A stretch of 32,000 nt of DNA from Candidatus Saccharimonadota bacterium (lineage in GTDB: Bacteria; Patescibacteriota; Gracilibacteria; BD1-5; UBA6164): positions 300,001-332,000 of the forward strand of contig OY782392.1 in the NCBI GenBank assembly GCA_963677765.1, given 5' to 3'. The notes beneath the pieces are model-generated. The model was given only the letters and a program-made list of their open reading frames with translations, did no database searches and was not told the origin of the DNA. Below, one piece after another: positions 7,561 through 30,290 of the stretch (position 1 is the stretch's first letter; each line of letters opens with the position of its first letter). Both the position numbers and the translations under genes were made by a program.

Positions 7561-8133
7561 ATGGCTGTTTCAAAACAAAAAAAAGTTGAGATATTTAACG
7601 AATTAGTTGAAAAATTCAAATCTGCTGAATCAATTGGTTTTTCATCTACAAGTGCACTTAGTGTTGAAGATTTTGCAAAACTAAGAACTTCTTTAAGAGA
7701 AGTAGGATCTACTTATACTTTAGCTAAAAAAACTATTATAGTAAAAGCTATAAAAGAAGCTAGAGATATTGAAATTAACTTATCAGACTTAGAAGGTCAA
7801 ATCTGAGTAGTATGTTCTAATGAAGATGCTGTAGCTGGTTTAGGTAAAGTTAACGATTTCATGAAAGCTATAAATAAAGATGCTGATAAAATGGAATGGG
7901 CATTATCTATATTTGAAGGAGAATTAAAAGACAAAGAAGAAACAAAAATAATTGCTTCTATGCCTTCAAGAGAAACTTTACTTGGAAGATTGGTTGGTTC
8001 TATGAAATCTCCTATTTCTGGAATGGCAAGATTCTTTGATGCTGCTGCTAAAGAACTTGAAACTACTGGAAAAGCAAAAGTTAGTGAATTAGAAGGAAAA
8101 AAAGAAGAAACTTCTGAAGAAGAAGCTAAATAA
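7561..8133 (+). CDS. rplJ: 50S ribosomal protein L10
   Basis: The two track ORFs (7561-7806 and 7861-8133) are in the same frame and are joined through a single TGA=Gly at 7804-7806. The 190-aa product has an L10-like sequence and an acidic C-terminal tail. Confidence 0.9.
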
Positions 8134-8140
8134 TTGATAT

Positions 8141-8280
8141 TTGGTTCATTGATTCCCTATTTTTAGGGAGTCATTAACTAGTTATCAATAAAATAACTAG
8201 AATAGTTCATTGTAGAGCTTGATTCAGTGTCTGTTAAGAACTGAATCTAACGGATATTGAACTAAAATTCTACAATGAAA
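8141..8280 (+). other. Structured rplJ-rplL intergenic RNA element (three nested or adjacent hairpins)
   Basis: Hairpins are gattcccta/tagggagtc (8151-8172) and ctagttat/ataactag (8178-8200). A long-range stem ttcattgtaga/tctacaatgaa (8206-8216 with 8269-8279) encloses gattcagt/actgaatc (8221-8247). Confidence 0.5.
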
Positions 8281-8320
8281 TTTTAAAAAATTTTATTTTA
8301 TATTTTTAATTTTTGCAAAA

Positions 8321-8695
8321 ATGGCTGAATTAACAAAAAATGCACAACAAATTATGGACTTAGTTAAAGAATTAACTATAGTTGAATTAAATGACTTAGT
8401 TACTGCTATGGAAGAAGAATTTGGTGTTAGTGCTGCTGCTCCTGTTATGGTTGCTGGTGCTGGTGCTGAAGGTGGAGCTGATGAAAAATCAAGCTTTAAC
8501 GTTGAATTAACTTCTGCTGGTGCTTCTAAAATCGGTGTAATTAAAGTTATAAGAGAAATAACTGGATTAGGATTAAAAGAAGCTAAAGATATTGCTGATA
8601 ACGGTGGTATGATTAAAGAAGGAGCTTCTAAAGACGAAGCTGAAGAAATTAAAGCTAAATTAGAAGAAGCTGGTGCTTCTATCGAATTAAAATAA
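8321..8695 (+). CDS. rplL: 50S ribosomal protein L7/L12
   Basis: 124 aa: ...[23 protein letters not shown]...[27 protein letters not shown]...[14 protein letters not shown]. No TGA codons. Confidence 0.95.
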
Positions 8696-8702
8696 TTCTA
8701 TT

Positions 8703-8738
8703 AAAAAAAGATAAACTTATATAAGTTTATCTTTTTTT
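8703..8738 (+). terminator. rplL intrinsic terminator
   Basis: Perfect palindrome aaagataaactta-ta-taagtttatcttt followed by a T-run. Confidence 0.8.
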
Positions 8739-8862
8739 CTTTTAAATGTTTTTTCTTAACAAAAACTTAACAAAAACTATATTTTTTATAGCATAAAAAT
8801 TGACATAGACTAACATTTTTATAAAATGTTTGAGCTTATAATTATATAATAATTTGATACAT

Positions 8863-10128: not shown

Positions 10129-11631
10129 ATGATAAAAGAAGTAAAAGTAATTCCCTGATGTATTAGTTGTAGAAACTGTGAAAATGTTTGTCCTTCAGTT
10201 TTTAAAGTAAACCCAAAGTCAAAAGTAATTACTGATCAGTATGAATGAAAAGAATCAGAAATTTTACAAGCTGAAGCTATGTGTCCTGTTAATGTTATAA
10301 AAGTAAAACAAGCTGCTGGTTCAGTAAAAATTTCATTCAAAGATGCTACTTTAGTTGAAAAAAATTACCTAACACCAGATACTTTAGAATTAAAATTTAA
10401 TACTAAAAATTTTAAGTTTAAACCTGGTCAATATATTTCTTTACAAGGAAATGATTCTCTATGAAATTTTAGTCGTTCTTATTCAGTTGCAAAGTGAGAT
10501 GATAAGCATTTTACACTAAATATAAAACTTGAAAAAAAATGAAGAGGTTCTACTTTTCTTAAAAATTTAAAAATATGAAAGAGTATAAAATTTTTATGAG
10601 CTATATGAGCTTTTTACTTACAAAATAATAACAAACCAAAAGTATTAATAGCTACTTGAACATGATTAGCTCCTATGGTAGCAATGCTTGATAAAATTGA
10701 TAAAGATGTACAAAAAACTGTTATTTTTTGAGTGAGATATGAAAAAGATGTATATTATAAAGAATTACTTGAAAGTTATCCTAATACTAAAGTAATTATA
10801 AAAGTATCTAGACCAGAAGAGAAAACTATATATAGCAAGTGAAGAGTTACTGATGAAGTAAAAAATATATCAAAAGAATCTGAAGTATATATTTGTTGAA
10901 ATCCAGAAATGGTTGAGCATGTAAGAGAATGATTAGCTGAAAATTGACATGATGAAAAACTTATATTCAATGAAAGCTTTACTATATCTAGAAAATACCC
11001 TTGAAAATGCAAGGATATATTTTTAAATTGAAATATTCCTCATTTAAATAAATTATCTTGGGCAGTTATAATATTTTCTTTAACATTAATACCTTTTAGC
11101 TGGATTTATAATAAAATAAATAATAATCTATACTGAGACTTTTTATTCATAAACAACTATATGGGATTTATGTATGACCTTAGTTGGTGGTCAGTAGTAT
11201 TTGTAATGGCGATTAGACCTCTTGCAGACTTGTTTCCTAAAATTGGTATACTAAGTAAATTAGTTACTTTGAGAAAAGCTTTTTGAATACTATCTGCTTC
11301 AATTATTGTATCAAATTTTGTATGAAGTTCTGTATTTAATATAAATAAATTTTTAACTTATTTTACTATAGCTTGATGGGCTCTATATATGCCTTTGATA
11401 ACTAAATTAAGTGAAATATCTGCATTAATATTATTATTAACATCTAATAAATTATCTCAAAGAACTCTTTGAACTTATTGGAAAAAAATACAAAGATTAA
11501 GTTATATATACTTCATAACATGATGAATAATTGCTTGACTATACTTCCCTATGAAAGTATATCCTGTAATGGCTATAGTTATAATACTATGGTTTGCTGC
11601 TTTAATAAAATCATTAATAAAAAAAGACTAA
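10129..11631 (+). CDS. Fusion protein: ferredoxin (4Fe-4S) + FNR-type FAD/NAD(P)H oxidoreductase + C-terminal MsrQ/YedZ-like (ferric-reductase-type) membrane domain
   Basis: 500 aa, uninterrupted with TGA=Gly. N-terminus has PGCISCRNCENVCP...MCP. The FNR motifs are RSYS, GRGSTFL, IATGTGLAPM and YICGNPEMV. The C-terminal ~200 aa form about 6 TM helices containing AIRPLADL...LRKAFGILSAS and LTSNKLSQRTLGTYWKKIQRLSYIYF, similar to MsrQ. Confidence 0.8.
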
Positions 11632-11650
11632 TTAAAATTAGTCTTTTTTT
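11621..11650 (+). terminator. Intrinsic terminator of the redox module
   Basis: aaaaagacta-attaaaa-ttagtcttttttt. The stem includes the final codons K-D-stop. Confidence 0.75.
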
Positions 11651-11714
11651 ATTAATTTGAATTTAATAGCTAATTTTTTATAATGATATAAATATATAAT
11701 TAAATAATAAAATT

Positions 11715-12683
11715 ATGATTAATAAGCCAAATATTGTTATATCAAAATGTATTAATATAGACAATTGTAGATATAACGGAGATAGAGTTAATGATGATTT
11801 TTTAAACAAATTATGAAAACATGTTAATTTTATTGCTGTATGTCCTGAAGTTGCAATATGATTATGAACACCTAGAATGCCTGTAAAGCTATATTGAAAT
11901 CCTGATAGAAATATAGTAAAAATGTATCAAAGTAGCAAAAAAATTGACTTAACAGATAAAATGAATGATTTTTCTAATAAGTTTTTAAATAAATTAGAGA
12001 ATATAGACTGATTTGTAATGAAAAATAGATCTCCTAGTTGTTGAATAAAAGATGTAAAAGTATATCCTGACTGAGAATCTAAAATAGCTCATGGAAAATC
12101 TAGCTGATTATTTGTAAAAAATATAGAAAATATATTTGAAAATTATCCTTTAGAAGATGAGTGAAGATTAAAAAACTTTAGAATAAGAGAGTCTTTTCTT
12201 ACAAAAATATTTTGTTTAGCAAAATTAAGATGAGTTTTTGAATCATGAAAAATAAGTGAACTACAGAATTTTCAAGCTGAAAATAAATATTTATTTATGG
12301 CTTATTCACCAAAATATCAGGTAGAATTATGAAGAATAATAGCAAGTTATGATAAAACAAATTTTGAAGAAATAAAAAAATACTATCATGAAACTATATT
12401 AAAATTATTTAATAGTAAAAATGATACTTGAAAAATAATAAATGCCTTTACTCATATTTTTTGATATTTTAAAAACTCATGTTCAAAAGAAGAAAAAGAG
12501 TTTTTCCTAGAAACACTTGATCTATATAAAGAATCTAGAATACCAAGTAGTACAATAATAAATATATTAAATATATGGTCAATTAGAGATAAACAAGAAT
12601 ATATATTAAAACAAACAATTTTAAACCCCTACCCTAAAGACTTAATGGAATTAAGTGATAGTTGAAAACTATTAAAATTATAA
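11715..12683 (+). CDS. ybgA: YbgA-like protein (DUF523/TudS-like domain fused to DUF1722)
   Basis: 322 aa: MINKPNIVISKCINIDNCRYNGDRVND...FIAVCPEVAIGLGTPRMPVKL...NRSPSCGIKDVKVY... followed by a DUF1722-like helical half. E. coli ybgA lies upstream of phr, which fits this neighbourhood. Confidence 0.8.
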
Positions 12684-12705
12684 TTTATTTTTTTATTATA
12701 AGATT

Positions 12706-13122
12706 ATGGAAATTATAAAAATATTATGAGTATATTTCATATGATTTTTAACTTTATTAATACTAGATTATTTATGGTTATGAATAGTAACTAAAGATTT
12801 TATAATTAGAGAATTTTGAAGCCTTATAACAGTAGAAGAAAATTGAAGTATAAAGATAAATCTATTAGCTTGAATAATAGCTTGGTTAATAATATCTGCT
12901 ATGATAGTTACTTTTGTAACTCTAAAATACGATAATATATGAGATATTATATTATATTGAGCACTTTTAGGTTTTATGAGTTATGCTATGTATGACTTAA
13001 CAAATCTAACTTTTTTAAATAATTATTCATTAAAATTTACAATTGTAGATATAGCATGGTGAACATTTGTATGAACAATGATAGCTGTAAATAGTTTTTA
13101 CTTTTATAACTATATAAAATAA
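12706..13122 (+). CDS. DUF2177-family small membrane protein
   Basis: 138 aa with about 4 TM helices: MEIIKILGVYFIGFLTLLILDYLWLGIVTKDFIIREFG...YAMYDLTNLTFLNNYS. The family assignment is from memory of its typical sequence and of its co-occurrence with DUF1295 and photolyase genes. Confidence 0.6.
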
Positions 13123-13868
13123 TGGAAATATTAATTTTTATATTCATATTATATATTATATTATTTTTAATAAGTATAAAAATTAAAGATAACTCTATTT
13201 TAGATATATTTTGGTCATTATGATTCGTAATACAAGCTATTTATCTATATATAATAAATCAAGACTTTTCATTGATAAAAAATATAACAATTTTAATTAT
13301 ATTAATATGGTGAATTAGGCTTAGTTATTATATACTAAAAAGAAAGCTAAAGGATAAATCAGAAGATCCTAGATATGCTGAATGGAGAAAAAAATGGAAA
13401 TATTTTTATACTAGAAGCTTTTTTCAAGTTTTTATGTTACAAATATTGTTAATGTTTATTATTTCAACTCCTATATATATAATTTTTTCTTGAAAAGATA
13501 TAAACTTTTATGTTTTTATAATATGAATAACTATATCTATAATATGATTATTATTTGAAATAATATCAGATTCTCAAGTTAAAAAATACATAAAAGAAAA
13601 CTGAAAAAACAACAAAGTTTTTACTTGATGATTATATAAGTACTCTAGAAACCCTAATTACTTTTGAGAAAGTACTTTTTGGTTATGAATAGCTATAATA
13701 TCTAGTTCTATTAGCATATATGGTTTTATTTGATATATAGTAATAACTACTTTATTGCTATTTGTATCATGAGTACCAATGAAAGAAAAAAGGCAATCAA
13801 AAAAAGAAAACTGGAATCAATACAAAGAAAAAACAAGCGTATTTATACCTTGGTTCCCTAAAAAATAA
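13122..13868 (+). CDS. DUF1295 (steroid 5-alpha-reductase-like) membrane protein
   Basis: 248 aa. The ATG overlaps the previous TAA by 1 nt. Contains ...SEDPRYAEWRKKW...ISDSQVKKY...GGLYKYSRNPNYFGESTFWLG..., the NPNYFGE signature of the family. Confidence 0.75.
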
Positions 13869-14090
13869 AAATACCTAGTATATTTTAAATTTTATAAATA
13901 AGTAATAAAAAACGTTAATTTTTAAAACATTCCACTTCGTAAATAAAATATATAAATTTTCAAAAACTTGCCCAATCAAAGATTGGACTTCAAACAGTTT
14001 GAAAATTTATATATTTTATATTTACTTGTTACATTTAAAAATTAAATTTTTTTTATTATCTTATTTAAAAATTAAATACTAGGTATTTTT
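13866..14090. repeat. About 225-bp imperfect palindrome (long inverted repeat) between convergent genes
   Basis: The outer 15 nt, aaaaatacctagtat / atactaggtattttt, are perfectly complementary. An inner perfect 20-nt pair lies at 13945-13964 and 13998-14017. A central mini-hairpin is ccaatc-aaa-gattgg (13972-13986). The arms are about 105 nt and mostly complementary by hand alignment. Confidence 0.8.
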
Positions 14091-15548
14091 ATTTAAGAAA
14101 TTTTCTTTTAATTTTTTAACAGCTTCTATATCAATCTTTTCAAGATTTTTTACAACAAATGGTTGTCTAGTTTTTTTGAAAGTATCAATATTTTCAGATA
14201 CAAAAGACCAATACAAATAATTAAAAGGACAAGAATCACTTTCATACTTATTTTTAACATTATATTCACAATTTGTGCAAAAGTCTGACATTTTGTTAAT
14301 ATAATTTCAACTAGAAATATATGGTTTTGTAGCTAATCTTCATCAATCAGAAAATTGACTCATTCATAATACATTTGGTGAAACTACCCATTCAAAAGCA
14401 TCGCTATATTTTTCAAAGAACCACTTATTAATTTCTAAAGGGGTTACTCAAGTTAATAAGCAATAATTTCATATAACCATAAGTCTTTCTATATGATGTC
14501 AATAACTATTTTCTAAAACTCTTTTAATACTAGTTTTTAAACAATTCATTTTACAACTATCTAAATTTTTTCACCAAAAATATACTGGAAGAGTATTAGA
14601 ATTGTTAAAATAATTATTTTTATAAATATCATCTTTATAAAAATGAAAAAAATGATACATATATTCTCTCCATCAAATAACTTGTCTAATAAATCATTCT
14701 TTGTTATTTATTTCTGTATTTTGATTTTCTATTACAGAAACTACTTCTCTTGGTGACAATAATCAAAAATTTATAGCTGTAGATAAATTAGAATGATAAA
14801 CATAATCATCATTTTCATACATAGCATCCTCCAGTTTTCAAAAGTTTGGAAGATTATTTTTTACAAAATAATTCAATAAAATTATAGACTGTTCCCTATT
14901 TGTAGGATAACTTATAAATCAATCAAAATTATAAAATTTTTTTGCTTCTATTAATCATCTTGTTTCATCTAATATAAGTTGATTAACTGATTTGTGATTT
15001 TTATCAAATCATCTATTATCTTTATCATAATTCCATTTTCATCATATTGGATTATTTCAGTCCATTAAAATATCAAACTTTTTTCTCATATATCTATAAA
15101 AAGTCTCCATAACAGGAGGCTTTTTATATTTTGATAAAAACTCTTTATGACTTAAATAAAAACTTTGATTATCTTCTAAAAAAATTAAATCAATATTATT
15201 TGAAGTTAATTTATCTTTTATCTTTAAAAAATTTTCATAAACATAGTTTTCTACAGGTTTTATAACATAAACTTTTGAGAATCATCATTTATTACAAAAA
15301 TCTAAAATTTCATTGTAATAACTATTTGAGACCTTAAACTCTCATGAAAATCCTTTATTATTTAATTCTTCTATAAAATTATATCACATTGCATAATCAA
15401 ATATTTTTGATTTTATATTCAAACTTAAATTTTCATCATTAAATCTTATATTTCAATTATGATGAATATATAAAAAATACTTTGATAAACTTGTATCAAA
15501 ATAGTTTATATTTATTTGATTATATAATATTAAAAAAAAGCTCTTCAT
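14079..15548 (-). CDS. FeS-BCP type cryptochrome/photolyase ((6-4) photolyase PhrB/CryB-like, iron-sulfur cluster containing)
   Basis: 489 aa: ...GWREYMYHFF...SYGHHIERLMVIGNYCLL...[55 protein letters not shown].... The C-terminal Cys pattern and the PFN.LYW motif are typical of the Fe-S bacterial cryptochrome/photolyase group. TAG at 14079-14081. Confidence 0.85.
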
Positions 15549-15871
15549 TATTTTTTTATTAATTGATTTAATTTATTTTTAGCATCATCTAAATTAGATT
15601 CATAAACAATGATATCATCCTGTAAAATAATTCATTTATCATTATTTTTTAAAAATACTATATTATCCCATCATTTAAAATCACAAACCTTATACCATAT
15701 ATTTAAAAGATTTTCTCTATCTTTAGAGTCTATTTGTAAATATTTATTTTTTAAAGCTAAGTTATACTTTTCTCTTTCATAAGGTCTTAATCTATGTGAT
15801 ATACTTCTAGATCAAATATTAATTCAAGATTTTTTTCATCTAGTTAAATTATCAATATGTTCAAGTTTCAT
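15548..15871 (-). CDS. Hypothetical 107-aa protein translationally coupled to the FeS-BCP gene
   Basis: MKLEHIDNLTRGKKSGINIGSRSISHRLRPYEREKYNLALKNKYLQIDSKDRENLLNIWYKVCDFKGWDNIVFLKNNDKG...*. Its TAA overlaps the downstream ATG by 1 nt (TAATG). No family recognised. Confidence 0.55.
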
Positions 15872-16014
15872 AAAAACTATTTATTAACTAATATTAAAAA
15901 TATATTAAAAAAAAATAATATTTTTGCAAATATACTTAAATATATATAATCTGTATATAGGATTGAAGCCCCTTAGTACATTTAACTATTTTTAAAAAAG
16001 TTATTTGTAAATAA

Positions 16015-17502
16015 ATGAAAAAAGATATACAACTTATTTGGTTTAAAAAAAATCTAAGAATAAAAGACAACGAAGTATTTAATTATTTAGATAGAGATAC
16101 TGAAACAGTCTGATTTTATTTAATAGAAGATGAAATAGTAAGACAAAGAGATTTTTCATACTTTCATTTAAAATTTATTATTGAAAGTCTAATAAACTTA
16201 GAAAAAAATTTAAAAAAACTAAATATAAAACTAATTATAAAAAAATCTAATTTTGAGGATTTTATAATAAATATAGAAAAAGAGTTCAATATAAAAATAA
16301 TAGTTTCAACTCAAGAAACTTGAAATATAGCATCATATAACAGAGATTTAAGAGTTATTAATTTTCTAAAAAATGAATCTATTGATTTTTTAGAAGTGGA
16401 AAATAATTGAGTAGTTAGATGATTAAAAAATAGAGATAACTGGACAAAAATTTGGAATAAAAGAATGTGAAGTGATATTTTTTTAGAAAAGAAATTTAAA
16501 AAATTTAATAATTTTGAGAAAGAGCTAATTCAATCTAAAATAATTCTAGAAAAATATAAAGAAAAAACAAAGCATTTAAAAACTCAAGAATGATGAGAAG
16601 ATAATGCAGTAAAAATTCTAGATAGTTTTTTAGATAATAGGTGTAAAAATTATTCCTATAACATATGAAAACCTTATGAATCAGAACACAGTTGCTCTAG
16701 ATTATCACCATATATAACATATTGAAATATATCAATAAAGTATATTTATCAAAAATCCATAAAAAAAATATTAGAATTAAAGACTGATTTAGATGAAAAT
16801 AATCTCAAAAAAATCAAACAAATAAACTTTTTTTTAGCTAGAATTCATTGGCAATCTCACTTTATCCAAAAACTTGAGTCTCAAGTAGATATTGAGTATA
16901 AAAATTTGAATAAAGAATTTGATAAAATTAGAAATAAATCTGATATAGAAATAATAAATAATTTTTTTAATGCAAAAACTGGTATACCATATTGTGATGC
17001 CGCAATTAAATGTTTAAAAACAACTTGATGGATAAATTTTAGAACAAGAGCATGTTTAGTAAGCTATATATGTAATACAATGATGCAACCATGGCAATCT
17101 ATTTGAAAAAGACTTGCATGCTTATTTACAGATTATGAACCATGAATTCATTATTCACAGTTACAAATGCAATCCTGAACTACAGGAATAAATACCATAA
17201 GAATTTATAATCCAATAAAACAGTCAAAAGAAAAAGATCCTCAATGAAAATTTATAAAAAAATGGATACCAGAATTAAAAGAAATTGATATAAAATATAT
17301 ACATGAACCATGGCTTAGTGATAAAAAAATTGAATGATATAGTAATAAAATTGATATAGAAGAGTTAAACAAAAAAGCAAAAGAAGTATTATGGTCTACA
17401 AAAAAAGAAATAACTAAAGATAAAAAAAATAAAATAATAAAAAAGCATGCTAGTAGAAAAAAAATAAATAATAAAAACAAAAAGCAACTAACAATTTTTT
17501 AA
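16015..17502 (+). CDS. Cryptochrome/photolyase-family protein, divergent subfamily, with lysine-rich C-terminal tail
   Basis: 495 aa: MKKDIQLIWFKKNLRIKDNEVF...SRLSPYITYGNIS...FLARIHWQSHFIQKLE...GIPYCDAAIKCLKTTGWINFRTRACLVSY...[38 protein letters not shown]. The tail is KKEITKDKKNKIIKKHASRKKINNKNKKQ. Confidence 0.8.
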
Positions 17503-17504
17503 AT

Positions 17505-17645
17505 ATGAAAATTTATGAAAGATGACAGTACAAAGAGGCAAAGCTATGCCCTATTTGTAAAAAATATTTTAGTATAAGAAAAAAATGGAAAAATAGTTTT
17601 GAACAAGTAATTTATTGTAGTGATAAATGTAGAAAAAATAAATAA
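17505..17645 (+). CDS. DUF2256 small zinc-ribbon-like protein
   Basis: 46 aa: MKIYERGQYKEAKLCPICKKYFSIRKKWKNSFEQVIYCSDKCRKNK. It has the CxxC...RKKW...YCSxxCR pattern of the DUF2256 proteins that commonly flank photolyase genes. The start is 2 nt after the previous stop. Confidence 0.7.
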
Positions 17646-17731
17646 TTGATATTAGAACTAAAAAAAATATACTATAATTAGTAGACGGATAAAGCTCTCG
17701 CCAATTTGTTTTATCCTATAAAAATAAAAAC

Positions 17732-19051
17732 ATGTACAAAAAATCTATTTTTTGGTTTAGACAAGATTTAAGAACATATGATAATGTTTGACTTTATAAT
17801 GCTGTAAAAAATTCAGAAAAATTATTAGTTATATTTATACTAGATAAAAATATAATAAATGATTTTTTATGATTAAACGATAAAAAATTCTGATTTATAA
17901 GAGAAGCTTTGGAAAGATTGGATTCTGAGATAAAAAGTTTATGATGAGAATGATTAAAAGTTTTTTATGATAAACCTGAAACCTTAATTCCTGAACTAAC
18001 TAAAAAATACAATATAAATGCAGTATTTACTAACAGATCATACTGAAATTATTGAAAAAAAAGAGATGAAAGCATTAAAAATACTTTATCTAAAAGTAAT
18101 ATTGAATTTTTAAGTTATAAGGATTACTTACTAGTAGAACCATGGGAAATAGAACAAAGAAAGGTATTTACACCATTTTATAAACTATGGCAAAAGATAG
18201 ATTTTGATACTAATGAGTACAAAATAACTGATAAAATAGACTCAATAAAAATAGAAGAAAATAATAAGGCAAAAGATTATATTTCTATAGAAAAACATCC
18301 TTATTTTACAATGGATTTTTGAGAAAAAAGACTGGAAAAATACATTACAACTGATTATGATTTATATAGAAATGACTTAGATAAAGACTGAACATCAAAA
18401 CTATCACCATATCTTAGATTTTGAATATTTTCTGTAAGACAAATATATAATTTAGCAAAAAATATTAACCAACATTTTGTTTCAGAAATGGCTTGGAGAG
18501 AATTTTGGCAACATATTGATTACTATTTCCCTGAAACTAAAAAAATAGAATTTCAAGAAAATAAAAGACATATAAAATGGAGACATGATGAATACTTATT
18601 TGAAAAATGGTGTAATTGAGAAACTTGATATCCTGTTGTTGATGCTGCAATGAAACAATTAGTAGAAACCAATTGGATGCACTGAAGAGCTCGTATGATA
18701 GTTTCTAGTTTTCTAACAAAAGATTTACTTATAGATTGGAGATGGTGAGAAAAGTTTTTTAAAAAACATTTACTAGATTATGATGAAAATGTAAATTATT
18801 GAAACTGGCAATGGTGAGCATCTGTATGAGCTGATCCAAAGCCATTACGTATATTTAATCCTATACTTCAATCACAAAAATTTGATAGCCAAGCTAAGTT
18901 TATAAAAAAATATATACCTGAACTAATAAACCAAAATACAAAAGCTATCCATGACCCAATAGATAATGAATTAGATTATACTAGAATAATAGTTAATCAT
19001 AAAGAGGCTCAAAGAGAAACTAGATTAGTTTATAAATGAGAAAAAGACTAA
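17732..19051 (+). CDS. phr: Deoxyribodipyrimidine photolyase (class I-like or Cry-DASH-like CPF member)
   Basis: 439 aa: MYKKSIFWFRQDLRTYDNVGLYNA...TSKLSPYLRFGIFSVRQ...MAWREFWQHI...[37 protein letters not shown]...[31 protein letters not shown]. Confidence 0.88.
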
Positions 19052-19068: not shown

Positions 19069-19125
19069 GTTGTATAAAAAAGATATGATAAAATATTATT
19101 AAATATACAATTTAATAATACTATT

Positions 19126-20697
19126 GTGTTCCAAATAAAAACAATAAATATTCAAAACTTTAGAAGCATAGATTTTCAAACAATAAATTTTTGAAAAAAT
19201 AAAACAGTTCTAGTATGAAAAAACAGCAGTTGAAAAACTGTGATTTTAAAAGCAATTGAAAAGTTATTAAATTCAAAAAAAATAAAAAGAAAAGATTTTT
19301 TAAACAAAAACAAAAAATTAATAATAGAAGCTATTATAGTAAACAAAGGTAAAGAAGTTTCTATAAAAATAGAATCTATATTTAATGAAGAAAAGCAAGA
19401 AGCAAATACAAAAAAAATAAATTTCAACAACGAAATTGAAAAAATAATAGAAAAAATAAATGTTATATATATACCTAGTGACAGAAAAATAAACAAAGAC
19501 AATAAGGAGAATTGATATATGAAACTTATTGACCTAATATTAAAAAACAAAGAAATAAATCAAAAAAAATCAATATATACTAAAAAAGAAGTAAAAAAAC
19601 TAAACAAAAAATCTTGAAGAAAGAAAACAACTCTATTAATAACTCTTTTAAGACTATATTTATATAGTATAAATAATAAAAATAACAAAGATTTTACAGT
19701 TTTTATTATTGATCAACCTGAAAACTTTTTGCATCCACATGCAACAAAAATGATTGATTCTATACTACAACAAATATGAGAATTAGAAAATACACAAATA
19801 TTTTACTGTACTCATTCACCTGAACTAGTTTCAAATTTTAGAAAATGAAAATATGAAATTTCTGATATATTATTCGTAAAAAATGAATGAGGGATAACTA
19901 AAACTCAAAAAATTGATAACAGATATTGAAGATTTAATAAAATAATGATAAATTTAATTTTTAAAAATGCTTCTATATTTTTCTCTGATGCTGTTATACT
20001 AGTAGAATGAGAAACTGAAAAGATATCTATACCAAATATATATGAAAATATAAACTGGAATAATTATTCTAAAATAAATAAAAAAAATATATCAAAAGAA
20101 GAAAAAATTAATTACTTTAACTTGAATCATAAAAATATTAGTGTTATTGATGTTTGATGAAAATGAGCACTATATGAGTGGTATGTTTTTGCTTGTGAGT
20201 TATTTTGAAGAGAAAATGTTATAGCATTAATAGACAGAGATGAAAATTTCTATATAGATCGTGATATGATTATAAAATCTATTAGAAAAATATATAAAAC
20301 ATGACCTATTTTTGAAAATGATTTCAAAAAATATAATTGGATAGTCTTAAATTGAGAATTTGAAAACTATTATAAAATTGATTCTATAAAAACATATATT
20401 ACAGAAGTTATTACTTCTAGAGCTGAAAAATTTTGAGAAGATTTCGATCAAGAAAAATTTGATTTAAGTTTAGATAAATTAGATTCAAGATTAAAAAAAT
20501 TAAAACAATCAAAGAAAATATCTAGTGAATATGAAAGGTTATTTAATTCATATTTTAGAAAATATTCAAAACCTACTATAGCATTTAATTTATCAACATG
20601 GTTAGCACAAAATAATTGATATGATGAAGAATTATTAAAAATATTTGCAAATATGATTGAAAAATTTGATAAAAATGAATCTAAAAATAAAAAATAA
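19126..20697 (+). CDS. OLD-family ATP-dependent endonuclease (ABC-type ATPase + Toprim), stand-alone
   Basis: About 523 aa: (V/M)FQIKTINIQNFRSI...LVGKNSSGKT (P-loop), FIIDQPENFLHP (Walker B-like), YCTHSPELV, then Toprim AVILVEGETEKISIP (20002-20019) and ALIDRDEN. The start is uncertain between GTG 19126, which gives the canonical N-terminus, and ATG 19084. Confidence 0.75.
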
Positions 20698-20755
20698 TTA
20701 TTCACTATTTTTAATAGTAAATAATATTAAGAAATAGGATTATATTTATTAAACT

Positions 20756-20788
20756 AAAAAAGAAGTAAAAATTATTTACTTCTTTTTT
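20756..20788. terminator. Bidirectional terminator between convergent genes
   Basis: aaaaa-agaagtaaa-aatta-tttacttct-ttttt, with an A-run upstream and a T-run downstream. Confidence 0.7.
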
Positions 20789-20791
20789 GTT

Positions 20792-21322
20792 TTAAGAAAA
20801 ATTATATATTATATTGTTACTCAATAAATAAAAAGATATAAATAAACTTAATATAAGTCAAAAAATAAAAAAAGAAATAGCATAATTTCTATCAAACTCC
20901 TTTATTGATTTTTTTAAGTCTTTATGAGTTTTATGAAATTCAATAATTCTATCCTCTATTCAATTACTAGTATTTTTAGATATTTTAATGTCTTTTTTAC
21001 TTAAAGATTTAAATATATTATTAATAATAACTATAAAAAATATCACAAAGAAAATAACAGGCACAATAATAGTAAAAAATCATTCATCTATTAATCACAA
21101 AAATAAAGAATTAAATACTACATAAAAAAATATTAATCAAGAAAATATTCAAATAAAGAATAGTCATGTTGCTCATAATTTATTTATTACTACATTAATA
21201 ATATTTTCCTTCTCTTCTTTTTTTAATTTTGATAATTCATTTTCTAAATATTCATAATCAATACCGTATTTTTTATTTTCATTTTTTGATCTAAGTTTAT
21301 CAAATATAGATTTATTATTCAT
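20792..21322 (-). CDS. Hypothetical membrane protein (176 aa, about 4 TM)
   Basis: MNNKSIFDKLRSKNENKKYGIDYEYLENELSKLKKEEKENIINVVINKLGATGLFFIGIFSGLIFFYVVF.... Uninterrupted with TGA=Gly; no family recognised. Confidence 0.55.
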
Positions 21323-22054: not shown

Positions 22055-22966
22055 TTACCATTTTCATCTACTTCATCATCATCCAAAAGATCAACCAGAA
22101 TATCTTCTAGATTTTGATTTCCTTGAATATGATGATTTTCTATAAGAAGATGAAGATCAAGAATATCAAGATTGATTTGAATAATCAATAAAATCAAATA
22201 TTTTGGAAATTATAAATTGAATAATTATATTTAAAAGTAATATAAAAAAAGATAAACTTAGGTAAAAAATAAATACAGAAGAAATAATAATAATTATAAG
22301 TAATTTTATATTTCTCTTCTTTTTATCTTCTTTTTTCTTATAAATACCCAATATATTATAAAATAAAGGAAAAAATAAAATAGACAAAAAAACAAATGAG
22401 AAAGAAAGAACTAAAGTTGATCAGAAATCATTTTTATTTTGTTGTGTATTATTATATTTAGAAATTATACTTTGATCTAATAACAAAAATCATCTTATAT
22501 CACTTAAAGCAGAAGATATTCAAGAATAGTAGTCTCATATTTTAAAATTATTTGGAAAATTTATCTCTCAGATACTTTTTGTTCTAATATCAGGTAAAAT
22601 TCCTTCTAATCAATATCAAGTAGAAATATTCCATTGTTTATCATCTATTGCTATTAATATAACAAGACCATTATCCTTATCAGCTTTACCTACTCACAAA
22701 GTTTGTCATATATCAACTCAAAGCTTAGATATATCCTGTCATTGTGTAGATTTTATTATAGCTACAAATATTTCAGCTGTAGTTTTATTCCCTATATCTT
22801 CTATTTTTTGATTAAGGTTATCTATCTGCTCACTATTTAAAATTCAAACTTGATCAACAACATATGAATTTTTTCCATTTAAGGAATTTATATCAAACTG
22901 AGAATTAGATATACCAAAAGATAAGCTATAAAAGAAAAGAAACAAAAATAATAATATTTTTTTCAT
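22055..22966 (-). CDS. TPM-domain protein (YgcG-like) with TM segments and G/S/R-rich tail
   Basis: 303 aa: signal peptide, ...YVVDQVGILNSEQIDNLNQKIEDIGNKTTAEIFVAIIKST...VGKADKDNGLVILIAIDDKQWNISTGYGLEGILPD..., two TM helices, then tail ...RRYSGGSFGGGGSRGKW. The track ORF 22166-22387 is an in-frame piece of it. Confidence 0.82.
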
Positions 22967-24992: not shown

Positions 24993-27900
24993 TTATTTAT
25001 TGTCATCTTCTGTCTTTAACCAGTCTGGTATCTTCATTCAATCATCCCATAACTCTGTTGAGTCTTGAGTTTTTTTAGTTTTAGAATCAGAAGTTTTATC
25101 TTCTTTTTTTACAGACTTTTTAGTTGTTTCTTTAGATGAAGTAGTAGATTTATTATTAGACTTAGTCTTGTCATCTTTTTCTGATTTTTCTTCTTTTTTA
25201 TCAGTAGAATTATCATCAATTGATTTATCTAAATCTTTATTATCTTTTTTATCAGATTTTTCATCTGACTTTTCAATACTTCATTTTAACCAATCTGGTA
25301 TATTATCTTCTGAAGTATCTTCTTCTTCGTCTAAATCTATTTTAGTAAGATTATCTAAATCTTCTTTTGTATCCATTTTCGGTAAAGATTCTTCTTTTTT
25401 AATAGAATCAGATTTATTATTAATAGAATCTTTTTTATCTAAATCAGAATCAGAGTTAGAATTTATTTCTTCTTTAGATTTAGAAGATCACACTTTTGTT
25501 AAATCTTTTTTATCTAAAAGGTTTTTAGATTCTTCTTTTTTATCAATTTTTATATCCTGCTTTTTAGGATTTTTTTCTTTAACAATTTCTTTTTCTGATT
25601 CTTTACTCTCAACACCTTCATCTTCATCAAAACTTCCCTTTAACCAATCTGGTATTTGGGATTTAGTTTCAGTTGAAGTAGTATTAGTAGCAGCTTTATC
25701 TAAATTAGGTTTATATGTTTCTACTTTTGTATTATCAATTTTTTTAGATTGTTCTTTATCATTATTTAAAGATATTTTTGTATCATTTTTATTATTAGAA
25801 CTATCTAGTGGTTTATTGATAACTGGATCACTTATTTTATTTTCTTTAAGATTATTTTCCTTAGGTTTAGTATCAAAACTATCATCAAATCATCATTTTA
25901 ACCAATCTGGAACATCTCAAGAATTAGTATTTTTAATATTATCCTTTGTTTCTATATTATCATCTTTTTTGTCTTGTTTATCAGTTCAAGTTAGAGGATC
26001 TTTTATATCATTATTTGATACATTTTCTTTTGGTTTATCATCATAAGAAAACGGATCAATAAATTCATCTTTTGTAGATTCATTATTAGGTGATACTTCT
26101 CATGATAAAGGATCAATATTATCTGATTTTTTTTCTTTTATAGTATCATCTCAAAGAATATCTCATAAATCAGAAATATCGTCTTTTACAGTTGAATTTC
26201 AACTAGATTTTCATCAAGTTTTTTCTGAAACAAATTCTGAAAAAGACTTATTTTTATCTTTATTAACAAGTTTATAATAAATAAAGAACAATACAATTAC
26301 AAATGTAAATAATAATATTATATAAAATATAATTTTTAATATAAACAATATTGCATCAATAACTCATGATCAACCTGTAGTTCAACCGATAACTTCATCA
26401 TTTTTAGCAACCTCTTCTTTTTCTTGTTCAGGTATATTATTAACACCTCAATATACAAATGTATTTAATATTGCCTTGAAATCATTTTTTTCTTTTACAG
26501 ACATATTTGGATCTTCAGCAACATTTCTAAGAATTTGTTTTCATAAAACTACATTTTCTTCTACATTATCATTTTCTGATATAACTTCTAATTTTGCAAC
26601 CAATAATTGATAACAAGTAACATTTTCTCACTCAACTTCTAATGATTCTTCTTCGATACAAGCTATATTAGTTGGTAACATGTTTTTTAATGCAGTTAAA
26701 GCTATTGCTTTTTCTGTTCTATCTGCTTCACCATCAACTAATAATCATTCTAATATATCTATTATTTCTGCAGAAGAAGATAATCATGACTCATCTAAAT
26801 AAGTAGAAAATTCTAAAATAACATTAGTTTTTTCTCTATTATCATTCCATGCTTCTTTTAATCTTTGAACATACATTAATCATTTTAATTTATGTTCTTT
26901 AGGAAAAGAATCTACTTTATTTTTAATTTTTTCTAATTGTAATTTTACTGAATCAGAAACTCATTCAAAAACTATAGAACTTGAATCAATCATTTCATCT
27001 TCCTCAATATATTCTTTTAATATAATTATATCTCTAGAATTTATAACTTTTCAAGATGAATCTTTAGTAAATATTCTTAATTTTTGTTCTCTAAATTCAT
27101 TTAATTCAATTTTTAAAGGATTTCATGAAAAGTAACTATTATCATTCTTGTTATCTTCATCATCATCATTTCATCAATTCAAATCACTATCAATTTCAAT
27201 ATCATAATCTACAACATAATTTTCTGCTTTATCATCAAATGCAAAATATAAGAAAACATTATCAATTTCATCTTTTAAAGTAATAATATTATCTTCTATT
27301 TCATTATTTGAAATAACTGGAAAATCTTGTTTTCTAATATTTATTATATTAGCTACATTTTTTGTAACTTTTTTTGTTATATCTCTTATTTTAGTTCATT
27401 CAGTTAATTTTAATTTAACTAAATGTACATTTTTTGCATCTTCATATGTATAAACAAAAGATCCGTTAGTAGTAATTTTATTTCAATCTCACATATCCCA
27501 TTCATACTCAGCTCAAACTCATAAACTTTTATCAAAGAATATATAAGTATTACCATAAGAGTAATAATCAAAATCTGGCTTTAGTATATTTGATACATTT
27601 ACAGTAACTGTTTTAGTGTTTGAGAATCATTTATTTGATACTTTTACTTTTGCTCTTTTTTCTCAAGAACTATTATAAGTATAAGTAGTTACATTACTTG
27701 TTGTTTCTTTATCATAAAATCAATCCCCATCAAAATCCCAAGAAAATTTTACTTTATTATTTAAATTTTGTCCTAATATATTCTCTGCATTTGCTGAAAA
27801 AGTAACTTCATCACCTATTCAAACAGATGAATTATTTACAACTAAATCTAATAAAGGTGTATTTACATTATCTCATGTAAGAGTGATAAAGTATTTTGAA

Positions 27901-30290
27901 CCTGTTATCTCTTCTGAAATAGATCTTTCTTCATTGTTGTCTTTCATTACTACAACAAAATAGTAATTTCAAGTAATTTTAGGTAAAACAAATGAAGTAG
28001 AATCAGTTTTAGTAGCTCTAAAATCTTGAGGCTCAGGGTCAACATCAGTATAGTAATACCATAAATAAGATTGTATTACACCATCTCTATCTTGAGCTCA
28101 AAGAGCACTAATATTAACAATTACTGGATCAGTTTCAGTGTCTTTTACTCTTACATCTAATCATGATAAAGTAGGTTTAATATTTTCAACTTTTATATTT
28201 ATTGTTTTTGAGTCTTCTCTTCAGTTTTTATCACTTTTTACAACTAATTTTAATTGTTCACAACCTAATTCATCAAATTTTTTATTAAAAGATTGAGAAC
28301 TATAAATAGAACGTCATAAAGTCCAAGAATATGATAATCATGAATTTTGTCATGTAATATCTAAACTTTCTTCTCAAGAAAATGTAAAATTATCTACCCT
28401 GTTAACTAAATATGCTCATTGTCATCCACATGCTCTTGGATCAAATGCAACTTCATTTCATTTAGGATCTTTCAAAGTTATATATGCATAAGGAGAGTCA
28501 GTATCTCAAATATATACATTTCTAGTTAAAGTATTTTCATTATCATTACTATCAATAACTTTTAATTTAACTCAATATACTCATGATTTTTTAAATACAT
28601 GAGAAATAGTTCAATTACTTCAACCTTCTTTTATTCAATCTCCAAAATCCCATTCATAAAATTTTGCCTCTGGAGAATCCGCAATAAATCTTATAGTCTT
28701 ATCTCTTTGCGATACTCTAGGAAAAATATTAAAATCAACGGATAAAATTGATCTAATATCTACCTTAGTATTTTTTTGGTTAACTATTCCTTCAGGATCA
28801 GTTACTTCTAATGTAACAGAATGTTCTCATATAGAATCAAAAGTATAATATCAATTAGAACCATTATAATTAGGTCTATCTAGATTTACTCTGTTTCAAT
28901 CAATTACCCAACTAAACTCTAATTTTCAATCATCAGAATAATCAGGATCATAAGATGAAGATCAATCTAAAAATACTGTATTAGGTCTATGAGAATCTGT
29001 AATACTATGGCTAAATTCAGCTACTGGAGCTCTAGAGTTTATATATATAATTTTTGTATCTATATCTACCTCTCCTGAAGGTTCAGTAACATATAGCATA
29101 ACATTATATATTCATTTTTCTGTGAAAGAATAATTAAAAGTAGAAGAAGATTTATTTAATATTTCTTCATCATTTTTTATATCAATTATTCTCCATGAAT
29201 AAGTTAAATATTCATTTCTAGAAGTAGGATTAGCAGTAAAAGTAAAAGTATCTCACATATATCCTTCATCAGAACTAGCTTTTATAGTAGCTATAGGATT
29301 ACTAACTATTAAATCAAATTCCCTTTTTACAGTTTTTCATTCATTAGTTCTAAGTTCTAGAGTTACATCAAATTCTCACTCATTAGCATATACAACTCTT
29401 TCAACTTTTGGAGCTCAATCATATGTTCTTTCAACTCAATTACCAAAATCCCAACTAGTTCTTGTAAATTTAGTTCAAGATGTAGGAGTAGAACTTGTTG
29501 CATCAAATAATAATCAATATTTTGCTTCTTCTGGTGAAAATTTTAATTCATCTCTATTTCATAGATTATCAGAATTAACTTTTACTATAACGGATGCTAC
29601 TTTTTCCTTTACAGAAACTGTAACTCTTGAAGAAAATGGTAAAACATCAGTGAATCATTGAGAATTTTTATGATTAGATGTTACATCTAAAAATACAGAA
29701 TAATTTCATTCTTCATTAAAAGTATAATTGATAGAAGACCTATTTCACAATACTTTTCTTTTTCATCAATCATTAATCCACCAAGTATAATTATAGTTTT
29801 CTAATTTTGTTCAAGTAGGATCTTCAACATTTCATCTAAGAGTAACTGTTAAAGGAGCATTTCAAGTAGAAGGAAATGATTCTATATTACCTCTGATTTT
29901 TTGTATATTAACTTTGTTTAAATAGTCCTCTATTGAACTAGATATAGTTTGAAATTGAGAAGAGTTTTCAGGATATTTTAATCCTCTTTCTATAGAACTT
30001 TTTAAAGAATTATAGTAATTTTTATTAATCAAATTATCAGGAAGATAATTAAGTCAATTTTTTGCTAACTCTAAAATCCTTGCTGAAACAACCGAGTCTA
30101 TAACTCAGTTTACTTCAAATTTATTTTTTAAATCAATATATTGATCAGTTATTCTATATCTATATTCGTTAAACGTATTTAGATCAGAAGGAGTAATTGT
30201 CGTATACTCAGTATCAGCAGCACTAACATAAGTTGGTGCTATAGCAGATATAATCAATATAAATAATGTAGTTAGTACTTTTTTAAACAT
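24993..30290 (-). CDS. Giant (1765-aa) secreted multi-PKD-domain protein with C-terminal TM anchor and K/D/E/S-rich tail bearing four PDWLK motifs
   Basis: I checked every codon of the frame from 30290 to 24993 and found no TAA or TAG. Signal peptide MFKKVLTTLFILIISAIAPTYVSA/AD. About 8-9 repeats of roughly 90 aa carry PKD signatures (APLTVTL, TSWDFGNG, YEWDFGDG, FSWDFDGDG, YEWDMGDG). These are followed by an acidic helical region, a TM helix (about 26270-26365) and a tail of about 430 aa. Confidence 0.85.

Follow-up and report, generated by a model that had tools for sequence, protein, structure and literature searches.

A 232-bp AT-rich palindrome between two convergent bacterial genes, most probably a terminator hairpin enlarged within one lineage

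Introduction

What kind of sequence fills the gap between two convergent genes when the whole gap is one long inverted repeat? The question is raised by a locus in a stretch of 32,000 nucleotides of bacterial DNA (hereafter the window; G+C 23%), in which the gene of a DUF1295 membrane protein and that of an FeS-BCP / photolyase-related (DPRP) protein meet tail to tail. Canonical intrinsic terminators consist of a short GC-rich stem (about 5–20 bp) and a loop of 3–8 nt. The element placed between these two genes, with ~94 base pairs (83 of them A-T) in 232 nt, lies outside this short, GC-containing-stem description. An earlier note, made from the sequence, described it as a near-perfect palindrome of ~225 bp and offered several readings, among them a MITE-like insertion, a 3' hairpin shared by both transcripts and a small-RNA gene.

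Results and Discussion

Genetic code and gene setting

Long open reading frames (ORFs) appear in the window only when TGA is read as a sense codon. The standard bacterial code gives short ORFs, and the calls made with table 11 returned fragments only, long frames being restored once TGA was read as sense. TGA is found at glycine positions of conserved motifs, namely the patatin GGGAARG motif and GGGGSRG within a GGSFGGGGSRG tail (examples at 123-914 and 22055-22966, both on the - strand). Because TGA occupies conserved glycine positions, the window uses genetic code 25 (UGA = Gly); code 4 was discarded, as the same two motifs favour code 25. This code points to a host within Gracilibacteria or Absconditabacteria. 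Homologues of the FeS-BCP protein number in the thousands, and those with a named source come from Candidatus Gracilibacteria and Absconditicoccus. Public protein collections translate these genes with code 4, with W at the Gly positions, and the apparent identities are ~5% lower. In its code-4 translation, the window FeS-BCP is identical to the protein P0122 of a 1,048,296-bp NCBI/ENA contig.

Both genes that flank the element are readable with code 25 only (Table 1). The DUF1295 gene is the final one of a DUF523/DUF1722-DUF2177-DUF1295 run, and two more photolyase-family genes lie beyond the FeS-BCP gene. The wider segment, 10129-19051, is a conserved light and UV-repair neighbourhood that contains, in order, a Fer4/NAD-binding membrane protein, DUF523-DUF1722, DUF2177, DUF1295, FeS-BCP, a 107-aa protein without a Pfam family and two photolyase/cryptochrome genes. 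The same gene set occurs in the relatives L002, L004, L008 and L010. In these relatives a small DUF2256 gene adjoins the photolyases; no candidate for this gene was present among the table-11 ORFs of at least 30 aa in 17490-17740, the host code being 25. Directly downstream of the photolyase genes, in the window as in L004, lies an OLD-family nuclease gene (AAA_15 ATPase plus TOPRIM; 19078-20697, + strand), whose start codon is ambiguous (a 539-codon open frame with its first ATG at 19519). Further along, the product of 24993-30290 (- strand) is a secreted protein of 1765 aa that combines numerous repeats of beta-rich modules, a transmembrane segment and a long, low-complexity tail, rich in Lys, Asp and Ser, in which the motif PDWLKG is repeated.

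The neighbourhood also holds a strain-level indel (window 11632-11714 versus L036 5991-8879, L035 2-926 and L013 4025-6044). Three genes that lie between the Fer4/NAD-binding gene and DUF523 in conspecific strains are missing from the window, where just a hairpin with 21-bp arms marks the point. One of them encodes a Cys-rich secreted protein of 223 aa, one a PspC-like membrane protein of 601 aa and one PadR.

Anatomy of the palindrome

The inverted repeat spans 13863-14094, fills the gap between the convergent genes and is very AT-rich. Its reality stands, and the description as near-perfect was too generous: compared arm against arm, 152 of 211 positions are identical, with 34 gap columns, and BLASTN aligns the arms at 73% over 200 nt. 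Several indels separate the two arms. The perfect segments, on the other hand, are longer than was first seen. The outermost perfect match extends over 19 nt rather than 15 and, as claimed, includes both stop codons, the TAA of DUF1295 at 13866-13868 and the TAG of FeS-BCP (read as CTA) at 14079-14081. The inner perfect pair measures 22 nt instead of 20 (Table 1). The right outer repeat encodes, on the - strand, the last five FeS-BCP codons (LNKNT) and the stop.

Table 1. Positions in the window of the palindrome, its parts, the flanking genes and other gene-end hairpins
Feature	Position	Strand	Description
DUF1295 membrane-protein gene	13122-13868	+	248 aa, code 25; Pfam PF06966, E=2.4e-54
Left outer inverted repeat	13863-13881		AAATAAAAATACCTAGTAT; 19 bp, perfect
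Interior	13882-14075		194 bp, ~73% self-complementary
Inner perfect arm, left	13943-13964		ATAAAATATATAAATTTTCAAA; pairs with 13998-14019
Central 8-bp hairpin	13970-13988	-	GTCCAATC-TTT-GATTGGGC, then AAGTTTTTGA
Inner perfect arm, right	13998-14019		TTTGAAAATTTATATATTTTAT; 22 nt
Right outer inverted repeat	14076-14094		ATACTAGGTATTTTTATTT; 19 bp, perfect
FeS-BCP / photolyase-related (DPRP) gene	14079-15548	-	489 aa, code 25; Pfam PF04244, E=6.3e-24
Gene-end hairpins elsewhere in the window	11613-11656; 8689-8752; 20739-20805

The central hairpin reported as ccaatc-aaa-gattgg is present and extends further, to GCCCAATC-AAA-GATTGGAC on the + strand. Together with the T-run that follows it on the - strand, it is the sole terminator-like match of a consensus scan, on that strand only, and constitutes the main asymmetric feature of the element. 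An A-run (AAATAAAAAT) and a T-run (ATTTTTATTT) flank the core ACCTAGTAT/ATACTAGGT, and the - strand runs on into TTT. Since the two runs lie on opposite sides, each strand gives a hairpin and then a U-rich tract. Six-frame translation of the element found stops in all frames and no coding potential.

Folding and the other hairpins of the window

The structure of the palindrome is far beyond chance. The RNA minimum free energy (MFE) is -64.4 kcal/mol for the + strand, against -23.2 +/- 3.7 for shuffled sequences (z = -11.1), and -69.8 kcal/mol for the - strand, against -30.1 +/- 3.7 (z = -10.7). Folded as DNA, the + strand reaches -51.9 kcal/mol, with a shuffle mean of -20.1 (z = -9.9). The shuffles preserved dinucleotides (n=200), and 0 of the 200 folded as well as the element. 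The folding calculation that had been proposed thus bears out the structure. In the MFE structure, 94 of the 116 possible pairs form, of which 83 are A-T (stem 88% A-T), and either RNA strand folds to a hairpin of ~94 bp.

A 240-nt sliding fold of the whole window gave a mean of -32.5 (sd 8.8), with comparable energies in just two other regions, one being the tRNA cluster and the other rplJ-rplL, where the G+C content is higher. The latter (7950-8370, which takes in the end of rplJ together with the spacer before rplL) equals the palindrome in folding strength (~-65 kcal/mol per 240 nt), and its opposite strand also has long ORFs. Other gene ends of the window carry perfect or near-perfect AT-rich hairpins that overlap stop codons. 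Their arms measure 21-32 bp and none approaches the element, which agrees with the earlier observation that it is far longer than the other terminators; no other inverted repeat of the window is near 232 bp in size. A survey of 118,065 genomes places Gracilibacteria second among phyla for inverted-repeat density, which fits a heavy use of hairpin terminators.

The same junction in related genomes

Four lineages at 64-68% FeS-BCP identity were inspected at the same junction. In L008/L009 and L010-L012 (FeS-BCP identity 68% for L008 and 64% for L010) the same two genes lie tail to tail with an intergenic gap of 9 bp. This gap holds a perfect hairpin with arms of 22-24 bp, to which the final codons of FeS-BCP contribute one part and the stretch leading into the stop of DUF1295 the other. 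The hairpin sequences differ between the L008 and L010 lineages and the pairing is perfect in both. L002/L003 have an extra 280-aa gene in the gap and a perfect hairpin with 23-bp arms across overlapping gene ends, while L006 has a different neighbour gene and hairpin arms of ~17 bp. No remnant of the 280-aa gene was detected in the window element (best tblastn E=0.46). Judged from these junctions, the usual state of the clade is a short, perfect, bidirectional hairpin of the terminator type. An ordinary unstructured spacer in the orthologous loci had been named as the result that would speak against the element; the loci hold neither such a spacer nor a long palindrome, but a third thing, the short perfect hairpin.

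The short hairpins of the relatives imply that the ~200 extra bp are derived and restricted to the species-level group of the window. The long form is present there in four independent assemblies: the window, L013, L035 and, in part, L037. When 13879-14082 is deleted in silico, the reconstruction joins AAATAAAAATAC-CTAG-GTATTTTTATTT, a perfect 28-bp palindrome; the two stops then lie 6 nt apart, both frames remain intact and the result is close to the state of the relatives. An old stem of this kind would account for the contrast between the perfect outermost 19 bp and the ~73% pairing elsewhere. The insertion or shared 3' hairpin suggested by the earlier note is accordingly plausible, given that the orthologous loci reveal a lineage-specific addition at the position of a terminator.

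The FeS-BCP C-terminus of the window (…KENFLNKNT; 14079-14093, - strand) is 2-3 residues longer than those of L008, L010, L002 and L006 (…KKEFTA, …KEKFKS, …KREFNN and …SEFMKK), and it is precisely these additional codons that make up the outer arm.

One reading of the extra DNA is a non-autonomous foldback transposon (MITE) that inserted at the centre (CTAG or TA) of the palindromic terminator, with any effect on termination being incidental. The opposite orientation of the interior in L013 (see below) would then stem from recombination across the terminal repeats or from excision followed by re-insertion. The size, AT-richness and non-coding nature of the element agree with it, as do the terminal inverted repeats (19 bp perfect, 232 bp in total) and the presence or absence between relatives at an otherwise conserved junction. 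The outer 19 bp can also be parsed as 12 bp of old stem plus CTAG plus 3 bp, or as flanked by TA dinucleotides. CTAG or TA does stand on both sides, but these motifs are self-complementary and would be present regardless. The apparent target duplication is no evidence, because self-complementary motifs in an inverted repeat recur on both sides.

Searches for other copies

A MITE family predicts multiple copies, and a BLASTN check of the arms had been proposed on this ground. This prediction found no support in the DNA searched: BLASTN with standard scoring detected no second copy across 120 kb of DNA from conspecifics and relatives (a low-stringency run with the arms gave AT-rich noise and was set aside). 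In JGI metagenomes the central 20-mer had one match, in a 1.96-Mb contig of 32-35% GC without flanking similarity, which is attributed to chance. The inner 22-mer had no match in viral contigs, and phages and plasmids held no match to the element. Among GTDB representatives, which do not include the source genome, the 19-mer gave 20 single matches in unrelated taxa, none two-armed, as expected by chance. The element is hence single-copy in the DNA within reach, and no donor sequence for the extra DNA was found in the DNA searched. Nor is there a recombinase or transposase in the window (14 proteins compared with Pfam, the other genes judged by eye from their translations). A MITE origin is considered unlikely; it is compatible with the account of an enlarged terminator that is preferred below.

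The RNA searches were likewise negative. Against Rfam 15 at the gathering threshold, the whole window yielded 4 tRNAs only, and at E<=10 the segment 13800-14160 gave two chance-level matches and no family. A 6S-like RNA was considered and had no Rfam match. Promoter-like sites in the element number 10, with 8.9 +/- 2.8 expected, which is chance level. The small-RNA gene proposed in the earlier note thus finds no Rfam family or other sign in its favour.

Conspecific copies and inversion of the interior

Besides the window, four conspecific assemblies cover the locus, with flanking genes at 97-99.5% nucleotide identity. L013 (ENA) and L035 (Logan SRR14954405) contain the whole element. L037 (Logan SRR13663709) breaks off shortly after the central hairpin, and L001 (ENA/JGI) includes 8 nt of the interior, too little for its orientation to be read. 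L035, with 3 differences in the 194 bp, and the partial L037 have the window orientation. In L013 the 194-bp interior is inverted as a unit, with the breakpoints inside the 19-bp outer repeats: taking the flanking genes as reference, its interior matches the window at 185 of 194 positions when flipped and at 150 of 209 unflipped. The orientation polymorphism is a new and checkable fact, established between strains only. Since the interior flipped as a unit and the asymmetries of its arms were kept, these asymmetries are older than the strains. The left outer repeat is identical in L013 and lacks one A in L035 and L037. The inner 22-bp pair is perfect in the window strain only, one arm having a 1-nt deletion in two conspecific assemblies. 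In the flanking DUF1295 gene (747 positions), L013 differs from each of the others by 12-13 and the others differ among themselves by 20-23, so that the inverted strain is not an outlier there.

The k-mers typical of assemblers are assumed to be longer than 19 bp. With repeats of just 19 bp and the element recovered from four samples, an assembly artefact is unlikely. The artefact belongs with a group of readings that also takes the element as a DNA-level site (a cruciform, a protein-binding or dimer-resolution site, or a replication terminus), for which a long AT-rich palindrome between convergent genes would be a suitable form. Four independent assemblies from different samples contain the element, which counts against the artefact; an essential chromosomal site fits poorly with its absence at the same junction in related genomes; and a replication origin or terminus was rejected since the GC skew of the window simply follows the coding strand. 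This group of readings retains almost no credence.

Two of the five conspecific assemblies, both made from short reads, stop within the element (L001 at 1637-1647, L037 at 1429-1549). The L001 stop lies 8 nt past the outer repeat, where low coverage (4.5x) makes chance a possible cause, and the L037 stop lies just past the central hairpin.

The two orientations also call to mind a programmed inverton, in which a site-specific recombinase acting on the 19-bp repeats flips an asymmetric cargo (the central hairpin and its T-run), and the flip selects which of the convergent units ends early or receives antisense read-through. The perfect 19-bp repeats are conserved across strains, a segment of ~194 bp occurs in both orientations within one species-level group, and the central terminator-like hairpin is strand-specific. 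However, the interior is ~73% self-complementary and has no sizeable asymmetric cargo, so a flip changes little, and the promoter-like sites do not exceed chance. Neither the 32-kb window nor the genes adjoining the locus in L013, L035 and L036, as given in precomputed annotations, include a recombinase; the 601-aa product encoded beside PadR in conspecific strains looks by eye like a PspC-type membrane protein and not a recombinase, and the half-site spacing or motifs of Hin/hix-like, dif-like and attC-like sites misfit, also by eye. Only one of the four assemblies is flipped, in a comparison of orientations between strains only, and private changes are more numerous in the flipped copy (8-9 in 194), a sign of an allele fixed long ago rather than of frequent switching. 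In the other terminator hairpins that the window and L036 have in common, the loops are either symmetric or of insufficient length to reveal flips. On balance, programmed inversion is decidedly improbable. Its fullest form, a phase-variable switch in a bacterium of the candidate phyla radiation, in which a recombinase encoded elsewhere would flip the 194-bp cassette, move a one-directional terminator and so decide whether the FeS-BCP gene or the DUF1295 operon suffers antisense read-through, is a long shot that merits very little belief.

Drift of the element

The interiors of the window and the flipped L013 share 95.4% identity, close to the 94.9-96.8% found at third codon positions in the flanking genes; the interior thus diverges at about the neutral rate. 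Among the nine differences between window and L013, four are unpaired, four break pairs and one turns A-U into G-U, and none is compensatory. The L013 fold is weaker than that of the window (-56 vs -63 kcal/mol), which fits drift as well as function. Drift thus seems to affect the primary sequence and also the details of the structure, and stability seems confined to the overall hairpin and the partly coding outer repeats.

This pattern bears on the proposal that the element is a structured RNA, either a small-RNA gene or a long double-stranded 3' UTR in which RNase III processing sets mRNA stability. A hairpin of ~94 bp forms from either strand and the convergent transcripts would also be mutually complementary, as the proposal would have it. 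Against this, divergence is roughly neutral without compensatory substitutions, the conservation is limited to one species, Rfam gave no family at E<=10 and promoter-like sites are not enriched. Moreover, the inversion swaps the RNA for its complement, which would be intolerable for a sequence-specific RNA. A structured RNA is consequently very improbable.

Comparison with known systems

Bidirectional intrinsic terminators are similar to the element in that it overlaps both stops, combines an A-run, a hairpin and a T-run, and has a conventional version in relatives. The element differs by being ~5x longer than the other terminator hairpins of the genome, by an 88% A-T stem with internal loops and by a 'loop' of ~194 nt that is itself folded and invertible.

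Bacterial MITEs that form long hairpins in 3' regions include the Correia elements of Neisseria, ERIC/IRU of enterobacteria and RUP of pneumococci, families with a defined target duplication whose copies number in the tens to hundreds in each genome. Like them, the element is an imperfect palindrome in the 100-200-bp class, non-coding, intergenic, probably co-transcribed and presence-polymorphic between relatives; in contrast to them, it is known in one copy and its duplication is uninformative. Invertons and invertible promoters, such as fimS, hin and the capsule promoters of Bacteroides, share with it the short perfect inverted repeats around a segment of a few hundred bp found in both orientations. 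The element, however, has no nearby invertase or above-chance promoter signal, its cargo is nearly symmetric and it lies between the 3' ends of genes rather than upstream of a gene.

In plastid non-coding DNA, hairpin-associated 'flip-flop' inversions with stems of 18-19 bp are well documented (Kim & Lee 2005, as cited in PMC6342102). The stem length, the non-coding location and the two orientations among close relatives are alike. The loops that invert in the cases of PMC6342102 measure 5-9 bp, whereas the segment here has 194 bp, is bacterial and is itself palindromic. The REP/BIME sequences of E. coli, treated as 3'-UTR regulators in a preprint (bioRxiv 10.64898/2026.03.23.713779), are extragenic palindromes at gene ends that are proposed to affect termination and mRNA decay; the element is similar in kind and differs as a single unit of 232 bp.

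Origin and likely role

The account preferred here, held with somewhat better than even confidence, is that two convergent transcription units share the element as their 3' hairpin, and that one foldback insertion (or, with lower probability, growth in steps) enlarged it at the apex of the old stem. According to this account, ~200 bp of foldback DNA would have been placed at the apex of an old bidirectional intrinsic-terminator hairpin in one species-level lineage, and the outer 19-bp stem would occupy the place of the short terminator stem of the relatives. An origin by insertion, rather than by stepwise growth, would predict an empty site of AAATAAAAATACCTAGGTATTTTTATTT or a close variant of it.

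Transcripts from either side would zip into the long hairpin and meet U-rich tracts in its 3' arm and after the outer stem. With the hairpin and the U-rich tracts in place, the element should still terminate or stabilise both messages; this putative role is suggested by its position and by the comparison with relatives. Recombination or replication template-switching between the perfect arms may then flip the interior and leave two orientation alleles in the species. Such a flip is expected because the perfect inverted repeats are closely spaced, and it would change little because the interior is ~73% self-complementary. The mechanism of inversion would be passive recombination.

Conclusions

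The palindrome is real, statistically striking and unusual, and most probably represents an ordinary terminator hairpin that has been elaborated in a single lineage. A long-standing question would be opened only if read-level data show active switching. If the account is true, additional palindromic DNA can land or grow in a terminator hairpin, and a bacterium with a tiny genome tolerates an AT-rich palindrome of 232 bp. Such a palindrome would also generate inversion polymorphism within a species, and orientation alleles of this kind could pass for programmed invertons in automated screens.
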